In this document: positions 1 through 7,962 of the stretch, one piece after another
How positions within the stretch are numbered: position 1 is the first letter of the stretch
Layout: every line of letters starts with the position of its first letter
DNA from: Gammaproteobacteria bacterium
Lineage (GTDB): Bacteria > Pseudomonadota > Gammaproteobacteria > Steroidobacterales > Steroidobacteraceae
Direction: 5' to 3'
Assembly (NCBI GenBank): GCA_030037905.1
Contig: JASHPX010000117.1
Location: 108-64,107, forward strand
DNA length: 64,000 nucleotides
Notes under the pieces: generated by a model
What the model was told of the DNA's origin: nothing
The model's input: only the letters and a program-made list of their open reading frames with translations
The model's database searches: none
Translations under genes and position numbers: made by a program

Positions 1-595
1 AGACAGCGGCGCCCCCCGCGCGTGAGCTGCTGACGAACACCACCTCCACATTCGCCTCGCCGCAAGCTCTGAGCACCGCGGCATCCTGCGCGAACATGTC
101 GGCGAGCAGCCCCAGGCGCTGCTCGGGCGCCCAGGGCGGCTCGACCGCACGCGCGCCGGGCAGCGTCACGGTCATACCCGCACCGGCGGCGGGCGGACTA
201 TGCTCGGCCGCCGGCGCGCCACGCTCGGCTGCTGGCGGGCTACGCACGCCGTCGATGAAAACCAGGCGCTCGAAGCCGGGCAGGGCGGGCGGCAGCTCGA
301 TCTGCGCGGCAGCCGCGGGTGGTGCTGCGCCGTGGCTCGCGCCGGCGGGTCCCGGGGGTGCGGGCCCGGCGGGCGGTGCGAAGCGCTCGACGCGCTCCAG
401 CGCACGCAGATTCGCGTAACGCCACTGCTCATCGCGCATCTGTGGCCAGCCCAGCTGCGCGAGTCGTTCGGCGGCGCGCCGCCGAACGGCACGCGATGCC
501 ACCTGCTCGGGCAGCTGTGCCGCGACCGCCTCGAAGTCGCGCAGCGCGCGCTCCAGTGCCGTGTCGCGGCTTGCCGCTTTTGCCGGGGCCGTCAT
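1..595 (-). CDS. sufD: SufD Fe-S cluster assembly protein, N-terminal part (gene runs off the left edge)
   Basis: My own minus-strand translation from ATG 595 reads MTAPAKAASRDTALERALRDFEAVAAQLPEQ...LAQLGWPQMRDEQWRYANLRALERVE, a SufD-type N-terminus. It starts 7 nt after the sufC stop, behind a GAGGTGAG RBS. It is absent from the ORF track because no stop codon lies in the window. Confidence 0.75.
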   Translation of the reverse strand, partial: MTAPAKAASRDTALERALRDFEAVAAQLPEQVASRAVRRRAAERLAQLGWPQMRDEQWRYANLRALERVERFAPPAGPAPPGPAGASHGAAPPAAAAQIELPPALPGFERLVFIDGVRSPPAAERGAPAAEHSPPAAGAGMTVTLPGARAVEPPWAPEQRLGLLADMFAQDAAVLRACGEANVEVVFVSSSRAGGAAV

Positions 596-602
596 GCTCA
601 CC

Positions 603-1439
603 TCAGGCCGCCGCCTCGCTGACCCAGTCATAACCGCGGCGCTCGAGCTCCAGCGCGAGTGTGCGATCGCCGCTGAGGGCGATGCGGCCACGTGCGAGCA
701 CGTGCACCTGGTCAGGTACGACGTGATCGAGCAGGCGCTGGTAGTGGGTCACCAGAACGATGGCGCGATCGGGGGCGCGCATCGAGTTCACGCCCTCGGC
801 CACGAGCTTCAGCGCATCGATGTCCAGGCCCGAGTCGGTCTCGTCGAGCAGCGCCAGCTTGGGCTCGAGCACCAGCAGCTGCAGGATCTCGTTGCGCTTC
901 TTCTCTCCGCCGGAGAAGCCTTCATTCACGCCGCGCGACAGGAAGCTCTCGTCGATGTGCATGCGACCCATGCGCTCCTTCACCAGGGCGAGGAACTCGA
1001 ACGCATCCAGCTCGGGCAGCTCGCGCGCGCGGCGCGCGGCGTTGACGGCGGCCTTGAGCAGATAGGCGTTGTTGACGCCCGGGATCTCCACCGGATATTG
1101 GAAGCCGAGGAAGAGGCCGGCGCGCGCGCGCTCCTCGGGCTCGAGGCTGAAGAGGTCATGCCCCTCGAATGTCGCGCTGCCCGAGACGATCTCGTAGCCC
1201 GGGCGGCCTGCGAGCACGTGTGCGAGCGTGCTCTTTCCCGAGCCGTTCGGTCCCATGATGGCGTGCACCTCGCCGGCATGCACGGTCAGTGACACGCCAC
1301 GCAGCACGCGCTGCTCGCCGACCTTGACGTGCAGGTCGCGGATCTGCAGCAACGCGGCGCCGGAGGTGCCCGCGCGCTCGCCTGGGTTTACGGCGGAGGC
1401 GTGGGCGGGGGAGGCGCTCATGCCGCTGCGCTCGCTCAT
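603..1439 (-). CDS. sufC: SufC Fe-S cluster assembly ATPase
   Basis: 278 aa from ATG 1439. Walker A GPNGSGKST, signature FSGGEKKR, Walker B LALLDETDSGLD. The ATG overlaps the sufB stop (ATGA). The 369-aa track ORF is an upstream extension into sufB. Confidence 0.95.
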   Translation of the reverse strand: MSERSGMSASPAHASAVNPGERAGTSGAALLQIRDLHVKVGEQRVLRGVSLTVHAGEVHAIMGPNGSGKSTLAHVLAGRPGYEIVSGSATFEGHDLFSLEPEERARAGLFLGFQYPVEIPGVNNAYLLKAAVNAARRARELPELDAFEFLALVKERMGRMHIDESFLSRGVNEGFSGGEKKRNEILQLLVLEPKLALLDETDSGLDIDALKLVAEGVNSMRAPDRAIVLVTHYQRLLDHVVPDQVHVLARGRIALSGDRTLALELERRGYDWVSEAAA

Positions 1440-3949
1440 GCCACCGCTCCCTCGAGGCTCACGGCAAGCAGGTTCTGGGCCTCGACGGCGAACTCCATCG
1501 GCAGCTCCTTGAAGACTGCGCGGCAAAAGCCGCTGACGATCATGTTGACGGCGTCCTCGGGATCGATGCCACGCTGCAGGCAGTAGAACAGCTGCTCCTC
1601 GCTGATGCGCGAGGTGCTCGCCTCGTGCTCGACGATCGCGGTGGGGTTGCGCGCCTCGACGTACGGGAAGGTGTGTGCCCCGCAGTGTTTGCCCATCAGC
1701 AGCGAGTCGCACTGGGTGAAATTACGCGCCCCGATGGCGCTCGGCATGATCTTGACCAGCCCGCGATAGGTGTTCTGCCCATGGCCGGCGGAGATGCCCT
1801 TGGAGATGATCGTGCTGCGCGTGCCGGCGCCGATGTGGACCATCTTCGTGCCGGTGTCGGCCTGCTGGAAGTTGTTGGTGGTGGCCACCGAGTAGAACTC
1901 GCCGATCGAGCCCTCGCCGCGCAGGATGCAGCTCGGGTACTTCCAGGTAATGGCCGAGCCGGTCTCCACCTGCGTCCAGGAGATGTGCGACTTGCGTCCC
2001 CGGCACTCGCCGCGCTTGGTGACGAAATTGTAGATGCCGCCGCGGCCCTGCTCGTCACCCGGGTACCAGTTCTGCACGGTGGAATATTTGATCTGCGCGT
2101 CGGCGAGCGCCACCAGCTCCACCACCGCGGCATGCAGCTGGTTCTCGTCGCGCATGGGGGCGGTACAGTTGTGTACCGCAAAGCCCTTGACCAGATAAGA
2201 GTGTGGCTCCTCCGCGGTCTCGAAGTTGTAGACGAACCCATCGTACGGCTGACGTTGGACCCCGCGCACCGGCACGAGGAAGTAGTCGCCCCGCCGGATG
2301 GCGCGCCGGCCACGGGTATTTTCGGCATAAAACAACACATACCGCGTACTATGATGAATGACGCGTCCGTCGCGCATCGTTTCATCAAAAGCTTCGCGCA
2401 CATTGATGTATGCGAAGATCCCGCGGCGTGCGAGCATCTCCTGCAGCTGAAAGGCGAGCGTGCGCGAGACGGTCGCGCAGCGCACCCGCGTCAGGCTGCC
2501 GTCCCGGCAGACGCTGCCGTCACCGCGATAGTACGCATCGGTTGCCAGCCGCTGGCGATGTGGCGGTAGATCCATGACCGCCTTGCTGAAGCGCTTGCCG
2601 GGGGCGTATCTGCCGCCGTGCTTCTGCAGGGCGGCCCCGAGACTGCGTGAGTACACGACCAGGTACAGCCCGTGCTTGGCCGCATCGTGGGTTCTCGAGG
2701 GGCGCTTGCCGATGCAGCGTTCGACGAGCATCGTGATCTCGTCGGCCAGCTCCGTCTCGTGGTCCCCCAGGCTCCACTCGACCGCCTCGCATCCGTTGAA
2801 CCGCGTCGTGCAGCCCTCGGCGACGTAGTAGCCGAGCAGCTGCAGGAAGTCGTCGCTCAACGAGGGGTCATCCCGTTCCACCTTGTTGATGGGGAAGACC
2901 AGCAGGTCGCCTGCGGCCAACTCCCCAGCCGGGACGAATTCGGGCTCGGCGCACTGCAGGCGAGCAGGGTTGATGTCGGGCCAGCGATTCGCGCCGCGCG
3001 GTGAGCGGCACACGCGCTTGCGCCGTATCGCCAGAACCGGATGCTCCGCGGTGAGGTGAAAGCGGTTCCCGGGGCTGCGTGGGGTGATCTCGATCATCTC
3101 GCCCTGGTAAGAGCGACGCATGATCTTGTTGACCTCGGCCTCTTCTCCTTGGTGGTTGAGGACAACATCGTGCAGGGCGACGTCGCGTACGCAGCGCATC
3201 TCATCACCGCACGCAACCTCCTCCCAGGCCGGCAGGCACCCCTCGAGATAGCTGACGTACGCCCCCTCGTCCGCGATGATCAGCGTGCGCTCGAACTGGC
3301 CGGTCTTTGCAGCGTTGATCCGAAAATACGTCGACAGCTCCATCGGGCAGCGCACGCCCGGCGGTACGTACACGAACGAGCCGTCGGAGAACACCGCGGA
3401 GTTGAGCGTCGCGTAGAAGTTGTCGGTATATGGCACGACCGAGCCGAGGTAGCGTTCCACGAGCTCGGGATGCTTCTGCACCGCTTCCGAGAACGGGCAG
3501 AAGATCACGCCCGCCGCTGCGAGCCGCTCCTTGAAAGTGGTGGCCACCGAGACGCTGTCGAACACCGCGTCGACCGCGACGCCGGCGAGGCGCGCGCGCT
3601 CGTGCAGCGGCACCCCGAGCCTGTCGTAGGTGGCGAGCAGCTTTGGATCCACTTCCGCGAGGCTCTTGGGCGCGTTCAGGTTCTGGCGCGGCGCCGAGTA
3701 GTAGGAGATCGCCTCATAGTCGATCGGACCGTAGCGCAGCTGCGCCCAGTGCGGCTCGCGCTGCGTGCGCCAGTGCGCCAGGGAGCGCAGCCGCCAGTCG
3801 AGCAGGAACTGCGGCTCGCCCTTCTTGCGCGAGATCAGCCGCACGACGTCCTCGTCCAGCCCAGGCGCCACCGTATCGGCTTCGATATCGGTGACGAAGC
3901 CGTGGCGGTAGCTGCGGCCCACCAGCGCGGCCAGATCCTCCGCGCTCAT
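1436..3949 (-). CDS. sufB: SufB Fe-S cluster scaffold, intein-containing precursor (837 aa)
   Basis: The exteins (237 + 243 aa = 480 aa) read as canonical SufB: ...IIADEGAYVSYLEG / CTAPMRDENQLHAAVVELV...WKYPSCILRG...FYCLQRGI...EFAVEAQ. A 357-aa insert separates them. Confidence 0.95.
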   Translation of the reverse strand: MSAEDLAALVGRSYRHGFVTDIEADTVAPGLDEDVVRLISRKKGEPQFLLDWRLRSLAHWRTQREPHWAQLRYGPIDYEAISYYSAPRQNLNAPKSLAEVDPKLLATYDRLGVPLHERARLAGVAVDAVFDSVSVATTFKERLAAAGVIFCPFSEAVQKHPELVERYLGSVVPYTDNFYATLNSAVFSDGSFVYVPPGVRCPMELSTYFRINAAKTGQFERTLIIADEGAYVSYLEGCLPAWEEVACGDEMRCVRDVALHDVVLNHQGEEAEVNKIMRRSYQGEMIEITPRSPGNRFHLTAEHPVLAIRRKRVCRSPRGANRWPDINPARLQCAEPEFVPAGELAAGDLLVFPINKVERDDPSLSDDFLQLLGYYVAEGCTTRFNGCEAVEWSLGDHETELADEITMLVERCIGKRPSRTHDAAKHGLYLVVYSRSLGAALQKHGGRYAPGKRFSKAVMDLPPHRQRLATDAYYRGDGSVCRDGSLTRVRCATVSRTLAFQLQEMLARRGIFAYINVREAFDETMRDGRVIHHSTRYVLFYAENTRGRRAIRRGDYFLVPVRGVQRQPYDGFVYNFETAEEPHSYLVKGFAVHNCTAPMRDENQLHAAVVELVALADAQIKYSTVQNWYPGDEQGRGGIYNFVTKRGECRGRKSHISWTQVETGSAITWKYPSCILRGEGSIGEFYSVATTNNFQQADTGTKMVHIGAGTRSTIISKGISAGHGQNTYRGLVKIMPSAIGARNFTQCDSLLMGKHCGAHTFPYVEARNPTAIVEHEASTSRISEEQLFYCLQRGIDPEDAVNMIVSGFCRAVFKELPMEFAVEAQNLLAVSLEGAVA
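2168..3238 (-). mobile_element. Class-1 intein with LAGLIDADG homing-endonuclease domain inside SufB
   Basis: The insert begins with Cys (TGC at 3238-3236; CLPAWEEV = block A). Block B is TAEHPVL. Two LAGLIDADG-like motifs are present: LLGYYVAEG and DAYYRGDGS. It ends ...GFAVHN (CAC AAC at 2173-2168), followed by a +1 Cys (TGT 2167-2165) of the conserved SufB CTAP motif. Confidence 0.85.
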
Positions 3950-4443
3950 AGCGGCTCTCGCTTGGGGCTACGGATCGAGATGCCGGCCAGCGCCACGGGA
4001 AAGCCGCGGTCGAGCGGCGAGGGCGCCCCGGCGCTCGTGCCTCCGAGGCCGGCCAGCTCCAGCAGGGTGATCTCCTGCAGCGAGCGACGGATCGCCTGGG
4101 TCACGCGCTGCCAGGCGCGCCCCACGAGGCAGGTGGATTCGATGCAGCATTGGCTGGCGCGGCCGGAGCACTCGGTGAGAGCGACGGGGCCCTCCAGGGC
4201 GTCGATGATGTCCGCGGCGGTGATCTGGGCGGCCGGGCGCGCCAACAGGTAGCCACCGTGCAGCCCACGGGTCGACTGCACCAGCCCGCGCCGATGCAAC
4301 TGCTTGAGCAGCTTGGAGACCGTCGGTGCGGCCAGGCCGGTCTGCGCTGCGATCCGGGCCGCTGTTGCGCGCTGCACCGGGTGGCGGGCCAGTTGGGCGA
4401 GGATCAGGGTCGCATAGTCGGTCAATTTGCTGATTCGCAGCAT
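3946..4443 (-). CDS. Rrf2-family (IscR/SufR-like) transcriptional regulator heading the suf operon
   Basis: 165 aa. N-terminal wHTH MLRISKLTDYATLILAQLARHP...VSKLLKQLHRRGLV. Cys cluster CSGRASQCCIESTC. Its stop overlaps the sufB start by 4 nt. Confidence 0.85.
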   Translation of the reverse strand: MLRISKLTDYATLILAQLARHPVQRATAARIAAQTGLAAPTVSKLLKQLHRRGLVQSTRGLHGGYLLARPAAQITAADIIDALEGPVALTECSGRASQCCIESTCLVGRAWQRVTQAIRRSLQEITLLELAGLGGTSAGAPSPLDRGFPVALAGISIRSPKREPL

Positions 4444-7308: not shown

Positions 7309-7962
7309 ATGGCGCAAGCCAAATACACGATGGAGGCGGGTACCGGACTGTTCGTGCTGCTGGGTTTCGCGGCACTGGTGTTCCTGACTACGCAATTGCC
7401 GGGCAGCGGCCTACAACTGGGCGGGGGCGTGCCCAGCTACACTGTAAACGCCGAATTCGATGACATCGGCGGGCTGAAGGTGGGTGCTCCGGTGACCATG
7501 GCAGGAGTGCGTATCGGACAGGTCGACGCCATCGGCATCGACCCCTCCGACTATCGTGCGCGAGTGGTCCTGGGCATCGAGCGCTCCTACTCGCAGATCC
7601 CCGATGACAGCAACGCAGCCATCCAGACATCGGGCCTGCTGGGCGCCAACTACGTCGCGATTACCGCGGGCGCGTCCGAGCAGTATCTGCACATGGGTAG
7701 CCAGATTGCCTTCACCCAGTCTGCGCTGGTGCTCGAGAACATCGTCAACAAGCTGTTCGCGAACTCCGCCAGCAGCAGCGGTGGCAACAGTGGCGGCAGT
7801 GGCAACGGTAGCAGCGGTAGTGGCAGCGGCGGCAACACCGGCAGCGGCAATGGCAATGGCAATGGCAACGGTGGCGGCGCCAACGGTGGCAGCCGCGGGG
7901 GAAGCGGCGGCGGCCCCGGTGGCGCGCCCGGCCATGGCGGCGGCCCAGGTCCCAGCCACTAG
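7309..7962 (+). CDS. mlaD: MlaD, MCE-domain protein with a Gly/Ser/Asn-rich C-terminal tail
   Basis: N-terminal TM (GTGLFVLLGFAALVFL). MCE core YTVNAEFDDIGGLKVGAPVTMAGVRIGQVD. The last ~63 aa are low complexity (SSSGGNSGGSGNG...GNGNGNGNGGG...GPGPSH). Confidence 0.85.
   Translation: MAQAKYTMEAGTGLFVLLGFAALVFLTTQLPGSGLQLGGGVPSYTVNAEFDDIGGLKVGAPVTMAGVRIGQVDAIGIDPSDYRARVVLGIERSYSQIPDDSNAAIQTSGLLGANYVAITAGASEQYLHMGSQIAFTQSALVLENIVNKLFANSASSSGGNSGGSGNGSSGSGSGGNTGSGNGNGNGNGGGANGGSRGGSGGGPGGAPGHGGGPGPSH

Follow-up and report, generated by a model that had tools for sequence, protein, structure and literature searches.

In a soil gammaproteobacterium of the family Steroidobacteraceae, the gene of SufB, a protein for the assembly of iron-sulfur (Fe-S) clusters, is very likely interrupted by a class-1 intein that is intact, includes a LAGLIDADG homing endonuclease and belongs to the allelic family of the Mycobacterium tuberculosis (Mtu) SufB intein, also called Pps1. 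The gene lies in a stretch of 64,000 nucleotides of contig JASHPX010000117.1 (GenBank assembly GCA_030037905.1), which we call the window and to which positions given without a contig name refer. We base this reading on the anatomy, the fold, the insertion site and the homology of the insert as well as on purifying selection and a patchy distribution, all of which were observed. A preceding sequence-only reading of the window had already proposed an intact mobile intein in SufB. The parts of the precursor gene are the following:

1436..3949, minus strand: sufB precursor open reading frame (ORF) of 837 amino acids plus stop, made up of N-extein, intein and C-extein (from the ORF list; identical to database protein P0077)
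3239..3949, minus strand: N-extein of 237 amino acids, last residues ...ADEGAYVSYLEG (Pfam SufBD_N; aligned with Escherichia coli SufB as far as G253)
2168..3238, minus strand: intein of 357 amino acids, precursor residues 238-594, a HINT domain split by a LAGLIDADG homing-endonuclease domain (motifs, domain matches, fold model)
3236..3238, minus strand: block A, intein Cys1 (TGC), predicted nucleophile of the first acyl shift (78 of 78 homologues)
3041..3052, minus strand: block B, T63-A-E-H66 (TxxH; T63 and H66 in 78 of 78 homologues)
2813..2839, minus strand: LAGLIDADG motif 1, LLGYYVAEG, amino acids 134-142, catalytic Glu141 (Pfam LAGLIDADG_3; Glu in 72 of 78)
2516..2542, minus strand: LAGLIDADG motif 2, TDAYYRGDG, amino acids 233-241, catalytic Asp240 (Asp in 77 of 78 homologues)
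2168..2233, minus strand: blocks F and G, VYNFETAEEPHSYLVKGFAVHN, amino acids 336-357, penultimate His356 and terminal Asn357 (NCBIfam intein_Cterm; N338, H356 and N357 in 78 of 78)
2165..2167, minus strand: extein Cys+1 (TGT), predicted second splicing nucleophile, Cys238 of mature SufB (E. coli C254 in the alignment with 5awf_A)
1436..2167, minus strand: C-extein of 243 amino acids plus stop, first residues CTAPMRDENQLH (Pfam SUFBD_core)

Family and domain searches identify the host protein as SufB. The full protein scores 863.5 bits against the NCBIfam SufB equivalog PRK11814 (NF008773; cut-off 717) and 594.3 bits against TIGR01980 (SufB; cut-off 346.4), and both Pfam SUFBD_core and SufBD_N are matched. 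The sequence-only reading had described an 837 amino acid SufB split by an insert at 2168-3238, and these coordinates proved to be exact: the insert has 357 amino acids and its removal leaves a SufB of 480 amino acids. The spliced sequence aligns to E. coli SufB (PDB: 5awf_A, 680 bits) without gaps across the junction, where the window protein reads YVSYLEGCTAPMRD and the E. coli protein YVSYIEGCSAPVRD. This confirms the proposed arrangement YLEG-intein-CTAPMRD at the conserved Cys of the GC(S/T)AP motif, with Cys+1 on C254 of E. coli SufB. C254 is the persulfide acceptor and is required for cluster assembly (PMC13228346), so the predicted second nucleophile of the intein would be the very residue that later receives sulfur in SufB. 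An assembly or annotation artefact can be ruled out as the origin of the insert, since the insertion is in frame, the host motif is exactly restored and the same arrangement is found in dozens of independent assemblies.

The borders of the intein were set by the motifs YLEG↓C (amino acid 238 is its first residue) and VHN↓CTAP (amino acid 594 is its last), where the arrow marks the junction. Every feature named in the sequence-only reading is present, namely the Cys at the start, the His-Asn at the end followed by the extein Cys, the TAEH of block B and the two LAGLIDADG motifs. The C-terminus reads ...VKGFAVHN at intein residues 350-357, directly followed by the Cys+1 of CTAP. There are ten Cys in the intein in total, including an extra Cys10 close to Cys1.

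The comparison with intein hidden Markov models, which had been suggested as a check, gave matches to Pfam LAGLIDADG_3 in two stretches of the insert (E=2e-11) and to NCBIfam intein_Cterm (19.2 bits for the full protein, cut-off 15.6), as well as a weak match to Pfam Intein_splicing which stays below its cut-off (25.5 vs 35.8 bits). NCBIfam also returned partial matches to several intein-containing archaeal proteins. Among PDB sequences, the search ranked PI-PkoII, an intein endonuclease, first (E=3e-7). This match covers both LAGLIDADG motifs, with LLGYYVAEG of the window aligned to LLGYYVSEG and YYRGDGS to YFIGDGD.

In an alignment of 78 homologous inteins, Cys1, Thr63, His66, Asn338, His356 and Asn357 are each conserved in all 78, where the invariance of His356 and Asn357 is imposed by the search pattern used to collect the inteins. 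The acidic residues of the LAGLIDADG motifs are found in 72 (Glu141) and 77 (Asp240) of the 78 homologues. The splicing residues are thus not degenerate, neither in the window copy nor in its family.

Furthermore, we modelled the intein with AlphaFold2 using eight homologues, which gave a mean predicted local distance difference test (pLDDT) of 89.8 and a predicted template modelling score (pTM) of 0.88. The 16 best Foldseek matches of the model in the PDB are all bifunctional intein homing endonucleases, including PI-SceI, PI-PkoII, PI-PfuI and the PhoVMA intein. The top match is the TliVMA intein (PDB: 7qsu) with E=9e-18 and a TM score of 0.72, and the next matches after these 16 are free-standing LAGLIDADG enzymes such as I-DmoI, which align to the middle domain only. 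The window intein shares the HINT plus double-motif LAGLIDADG fold with PI-SceI, PI-PkoII, PI-PfuI and the TliVMA intein (TM 0.58-0.72, E 1e-13 to 9e-18), but its sequence is only 11-16% identical to theirs. Their host proteins also differ from SufB, being the VMA1 ATPase, DNA polymerase and ribonucleotide reductase. Unlike in PI-SceI, no extra DNA-recognition region is evident in the 357 amino acids of the window intein.

A well-studied relative is found in the SufB of M. tuberculosis (Rv1461). A profile search with actinobacterial-type SufB inteins led to the database protein P0433, with an N-extein of 252 amino acids which has His at 248 and 215 and ends with ...SYVHYVEG, followed by CLPAGELITT.... 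Its N-terminal sequence agrees with what we take to be that of Rv1461. We treat P0433 as a fragment from the M. tuberculosis complex because these numbers agree with the published Mtu SufB (PMC8891592). That protein of 846 amino acids consists of a 252 amino acid N-extein, a 359 amino acid intein and a 235 amino acid C-extein, and the residues described for it are Cys1, block B His67, His358, Asn359 and Cys+1, together with His-5 (H248) and His-38 (H215) of the N-extein (PMC8891592). The Mtu insertion site used here is the one derived from the Mtu-type fragment P0433 and from P0385, a complete mycobacterial-type intein of 359 amino acids with block B His67, whose N-terminal part matches the fragment.

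The window intein and P0385 are 36.4% identical over 354 aligned positions and colinear from CLPA... to ...GFAVHN. Another intein of the mycobacterial type, P0224, was matched with E=2e-47 in an all-against-library HMMER search. Window and Mtu intein share the host protein and the insertion point, Y-x-EG↓C...HN↓C(T/S)AP, as well as Cys1, the TxxH of block B (His66 in the window, His67 in Mtu), two LAGLIDADG motifs, the VYN of block F and the GFAVHN end, and their lengths are 357 and 359 amino acids. They differ in the host, which is a Gram-negative gammaproteobacterium with an E. coli type SufB, the 243 amino acid C-extein of which has a GDEQGRGG insertion. Moreover, His-5 and His-38, which are reported to aid N-cleavage in Mtu, are replaced by Ser and Arg, respectively, in the window protein.

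The sequence-only reading had mentioned SufB inteins of mycobacteria and archaea at this same cysteine, and this holds for both groups: the insertion point is the same in P0433 (...SYVHYVEG↓CLPAG), in the archaeal P0202 and in archaeal loci. P0202 represents the Ferroplasma-type inteins of Thermoplasmata and has the site VHYIEG↓CLPAEE...FAVHN↓CTAPTY; its intein is of the same family, with 38% identity to the one of the window. The archaeal exteins are only about 40% identical to those of the window and belong to the short Gram-positive/archaeal SufB type. Judged by its sequence, the window intein is allelic and homologous to the SufB intein of Mtu, with which it shares the site.

Given these residues and the standard four-step splicing known for class-1 inteins, SufB would be synthesised as an 837 amino acid precursor. 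Cys1, aided by Thr63 and His66 of block B, would convert the peptide bond between Gly237 and Cys238 into a thioester in an N-to-S shift, which would then be attacked by the extein Cys+1 in a trans-thioesterification. Cyclisation of Asn357, aided by His356, would free the intein, and an S-to-N shift would yield the 480 amino acid SufB with the native ...YLEG-CTAP.... Homing is predicted for the free intein of about 40 kDa: it would cleave sufB alleles that lack the intein at the EG↓C codons and insert a copy of itself by recombination, which would explain the patchy distribution described below. The intein breaks the SufB core just before the persulfide-acceptor cysteine, so the precursor would not be a functional scaffold and the sufB copy of the window would depend on splicing. 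Whether this dependence extends to the whole cell hinges on Fe-S systems beyond the 64-kb window.

For the distribution, one genome per GTDB species was scanned with the C-terminal pattern VKGFA[VT]HN, and the best 80 of the 151 genomes with a relative were inspected. The C(T/S)AP of SufB follows directly after the intein in all 80 inspected loci, and ...EG precedes it in each of the 77 whose intein is complete. Gammaproteobacterial-type exteins, with a C-extein of 243-245 amino acids that is at least 70% identical to the one of the window, are found in about 50 of the 80 loci, and 17 of the 80 are labelled Steroidobacteraceae. The intein is therefore less unusual in proteobacteria than had been claimed from the sequence alone. 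The remaining inspected loci have the short SufB type and carry labels such as Thermoplasmata, Micrarchaeota, ARMAN-4, Nitrososphaerales, Chloroflexi, Acidobacteriota and candidate-phyla-radiation bacteria, besides others. Those with archaeal labels (Thermoplasmata, Micrarchaeota, ARMAN-4 and Nitrososphaerales) sit among the loci L047-L081, and actinobacterial hosts are Candidatus Phosphoribacter baldrii, Frankiaceae and Pseudonocardiaceae.

The window intein shares the site and the operon layout with its nearest intein-bearing relatives, including the one of Methylothermus subterraneus, at an intein identity of 59-81%. It is a distinct allele among them, with locus L002 as the closest match (81%). 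The SufB of M. subterraneus is already named "intein-containing" in the database. The sequence-only reading had also raised the case of an insert both widespread and already described in this clade. The intein did turn out to be widespread, but we found no description of a proteobacterial SufB intein in the literature searched, to which the supplementary tables of the Novikova et al. survey did not belong; the published discussion of SufB inteins that we found concerns mycobacteria and Ferroplasma only. The window intein thus adds one more member to a SufB intein allele family that was known before, in a lineage that already has many copies in public genomes.

Besides the single-intein genes, some SufB proteins have at least two inteins. 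Examples are P0205 (1260 amino acids), P0207 (1237 amino acids, Candidatus Fervidibacter), P0209 and P0217 (1004 amino acids, Candidatus Phosphoribacter baldrii), and further multi-intein loci are L048, L056, L057, L064 and L078. One intein of these proteins is positioned at EG↓C; the others lie either in the N-terminal region, at ...E↓SEVVYH, or in the C-terminal core, at ...↓SK(L/V)TMKYPS. Another group of eight loci (L023, L024, L025, L028, L036, L040, L045 and L058) has this intein in proteobacterial-type SufB exteins, which are 72-79% identical to the window, in genomes labelled Latescibacterota, Elusimicrobia, Actinomycetota, Andersenbacteria, Thermoplasmata or Methanomassiliicoccales. 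Either these contigs are mislabelled or mis-binned, or sufB was transferred across phyla.

The survey of relatives for intein-free alleles, another suggested check, supports a mobile element. The 119 SufB clusters nearest to the window extein (86-92% identity), which belong to Steroidobacteraceae/Steroidobacterales where named, have lengths of 478-490 amino acids and are thus intein-free. The closest of these intein-free proteins (L082, 92% identical) is encoded in the same operon, and its site is not interrupted but reads YLEGCTAPMRD, as in the spliced window SufB. Its empty-site DNA, TATTTGGAGGGATGCACGGCGCCC (also ...AGCTATTTGGAGGGATGCACGGCGCCCATGCG...), is identical to the joined flanks of the window at 57 of 72 positions. 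Where both extein flanks are complete in an intein-bearing species genome, the extein identity to the window is at most about 85%.

The closest intein-bearing relative by its extein is L046 (JASHSK010000277.1, 4001-5071), with an N-extein that is 96% identical to the window and an intein that is only 61% identical. Its intein is of a different subtype, starting with CLPGDEEVSY... where the window intein starts with CLPAWEEV.... Between the two, the nonsynonymous divergence (dN) is 0.023 for the extein vs 0.345 for the intein, and the synonymous divergence (dS) is 0.47 vs 1.08. This mismatch points to an independent invasion or a replacement of the intein rather than to co-descent with the extein. 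Together with the 119 intein-free clusters, it indicates that the intein is sporadic and mobile.

The comparison with the five closest inteins gave dN/dS ratios of about 0.08-0.14 (whole intein) and about 0.07-0.17 (endonuclease domain), which are comparable to those of the exteins; these values are rough, as dS is near saturation. The low ratios indicate that both the splicing and the endonuclease part are kept by selection. Both motifs with their acidic residues, the invariant splicing residues, the patchy distribution and the discordance of intein and extein agree with the proposal of an intact mobile intein, and the last two lend indirect support to the predicted cleavage of intein-free alleles. 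The G+C content at third codon positions (GC3) is 0.81 in the intein (2168..3238) and 0.90-0.91 in the exteins (1439..2167 and 3239..3949), while the total G+C content is similar. We regard this gap as a mild compositional sign of foreign origin and as a weak signal of recent transfer. A viral vector was considered and rejected: in a scan of viral contigs, the inteins found were all distant (best-segment identity 22-36%) and none was a SufB-type copy.

Some points weigh against this reading, in which splicing and DNA cleavage are predicted from the conserved residues and from the homologous Mtu intein. The block F position F:4 (Asn338 in VYN, window 2227..2229) is Asp in many class-1 inteins, but is Asn in all 78 homologues. 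The mycobacterial-type intein P0385 likewise has Asn here and belongs to a type which splices, so Asn338 would be a trait of the family and not a defect. Moreover, the identities of inteins and exteins correlate positively among the gammaproteobacterial loci (r=0.67), and the clusters of inteins mostly follow those of the exteins. Vertical inheritance thus dominates within sub-clades, and homing may be infrequent.

The position of the intein in front of a sulfur-handling cysteine also allows a different reading, in which it is a domesticated regulatory element. By analogy to the proposal for Mtu, oxidation, nitrosylation or persulfidation of the Cys1/Cys+1 pair would stall the maturation of SufB and tune Fe-S assembly to the redox state. 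The window intein has the same family, site and Cys1/Cys+1 pair as the Mtu SufB intein, whose sensitivity to oxidative and nitrosative stress was reportedly described by Topilina and colleagues in 2015. Also in favour of this reading, persulfide is accepted at the +1 Cys, the intein has ten Cys with Cys10 near Cys1, and the related inteins of IscU and of the 2-oxoacid:ferredoxin oxidoreductase beta subunit precede Fe-S cysteines as well. However, the 119 nearest SufB clusters do without the intein, near-identical exteins have differing intein subtypes, and the active-site residues of the endonuclease are almost universally retained and under purifying selection, as is expected of a selfish homing element. 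In addition, any intein with Cys1 and Cys+1 is intrinsically sensitive to oxidants, so that sensitivity alone is no proof of adaptation. As the nearest relatives are intein-free and the endonuclease is retained, a selfish element fits better than a redox switch, and we consider regulation of this kind unlikely.

The IscU inteins are found in the archaeal proteins P0035, P0042, P0058, P0220, P0221 and P0230. They belong to the same intein lineage, with 35-38% identity and a ...YLVKGFAVHN end, and are positioned at TFG↓C(T/A/G)AAIATSS. Their spliced product is a genuine IscU, which matches Archaeoglobus IscU (PDB: 4eb5) with E=2e-55, and the +1 Cys is aligned with its residue 58, which we take to be the cluster-ligand cysteine. 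No published description of an IscU intein was found in the literature searched. In the 2-oxoacid:ferredoxin oxidoreductase beta subunits P0218, P0260 and P0377 of Aenigmarchaeota, a related intein (36% identity, E=1e-51) is located at GIG↓CGSKTPHF. Here the +1 Cys is aligned with residue 46 of 5b46_B, presumably one of the [4Fe-4S] ligands along with Cys12 and Cys15, and intein-free alleles of 283 amino acids belong to the same 90% cluster as the intein-bearing subunits. Further relatives of the intein are found in the 4Fe-4S ferredoxin-domain proteins P0421-P0424.

Since the lineage is found directly before sulfur- or cluster-handling Cys of at least three unrelated Fe-S proteins, it might be kept as a switch sensitive to the thiol state, which would make the maturation of the Fe-S machinery conditional on the redox or persulfide status. 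We hold this to be quite improbable. If it were true, the stress sensor proposed for M. tuberculosis would have a soil-dwelling counterpart among proteobacteria in the Steroidobacteraceae copy.

The genes next to the interrupted sufB are arranged as follows:

3946..4443, minus strand: gene of an Rrf2-family regulator upstream of sufB, its stop overlapping the sufB start (ATGA) (ORF and junction sequence; Pfam Rrf2 and the same order in the relatives L001 and L082)
603..1439, minus strand: sufC (ABC ATPase), its start overlapping the sufB stop (ATGA) (ORF; ABC_tran at the same position in relatives)
1..601, minus strand: 5' part of sufD, continuing past the window edge (from the translation, the relatives having a SUFBD_core gene after sufC; the window sequence itself without family search)

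The window operon is thus Rrf2-sufB-sufC-sufD, with ATGA overlaps at the Rrf2/sufB and sufB/sufC junctions. Close relatives have the identical gene order, followed by genes for a cysteine desulfurase, a NifU_N-domain protein and an FeS_assembly_P-domain protein.

This intact operon with its coupled start and stop codons bears on the remaining alternative, a decaying or non-splicing insert, according to which the sufB copy would be a pseudogene or permanently interrupted and another system would take over Fe-S assembly. Many of the database homologues do look like fragments, the M. subterraneus homologue has no GDGS in its LAGLIDADG motif 2, and our view is that of the 64-kb window, which comes from a 65.6-kb contig of what is probably a metagenome-assembled genome, with the rest of the genome outside. 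However, the window ORF is unbroken over 837 codons, none of the splicing residues is missing and all of them are invariant across the family, and dN/dS is far below 1. The clusters of two fragment representatives (P0007 and P0009) also include full-length members of 833 and 840 amino acids, and the other fragments mostly come from contigs of a few kb. We consider decay of the window copy very unlikely. That the homologues are pseudogenes can be ruled out for the cases examined, which are the P0007 and P0009 clusters, L001 and the contigs of a few kb.

L001 (ENA contig_168863) is a 200 kb contig of a close relative with the same Mla / aldolase / Rrf2-suf gene order. Its intein-bearing sufB is split by frameshifts, and the neighbouring genes are likewise fragmented or fused. 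The damage fits errors of an indel-rich assembly, and the same cause may be behind other partial intein-SufB entries. In the M. subterraneus SufB (P0197, 833 amino acids), the splicing blocks are intact and the GDGS of LAGLIDADG motif 2 is lost (YYR, a four-position gap and VGQDGN), whereas the window copy has both motifs; judging from this loss, the Methylothermus endonuclease is probably dead. The RefSeq version of the Methylothermus protein (WP_460035455.1) has an internal Met of the intein as its start and bears the name 'SufD family' protein, an artefact of annotation.

Elsewhere in the window, the ORF at 7309..7962 (plus strand) adjoins MlaF/MlaE-like genes and ends with a Gly/Ser/Asn-rich low-complexity tail of about 70 residues (...SSSGGNSGGSGNGSSGSGSGGNTGSGNGNGNGNGGG...). 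Its position, judged without family search, suggests an MlaD homologue. Scans of the window for Rfam families and tRNAs gave nothing relevant to the intein.

An intact class-1 intein with a homing endonuclease in the Steroidobacteraceae sufB leaves the understanding of inteins or of Fe-S assembly unchanged. It draws attention to a recurring annotation problem, as genes of intein-bearing SufB are often truncated or called 'SufD family' or 'LAGLIDADG endonuclease'. With this finding, the range of the M. tuberculosis-type SufB intein includes Gram-negative Gammaproteobacteria from soil, and one intein allele now spans many phyla of bacteria and archaea, in each case at the persulfide-acceptor cysteine. 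Non-pathogenic SufB precursors of the E. coli type are thereby on offer for the study of redox control at this cysteine.

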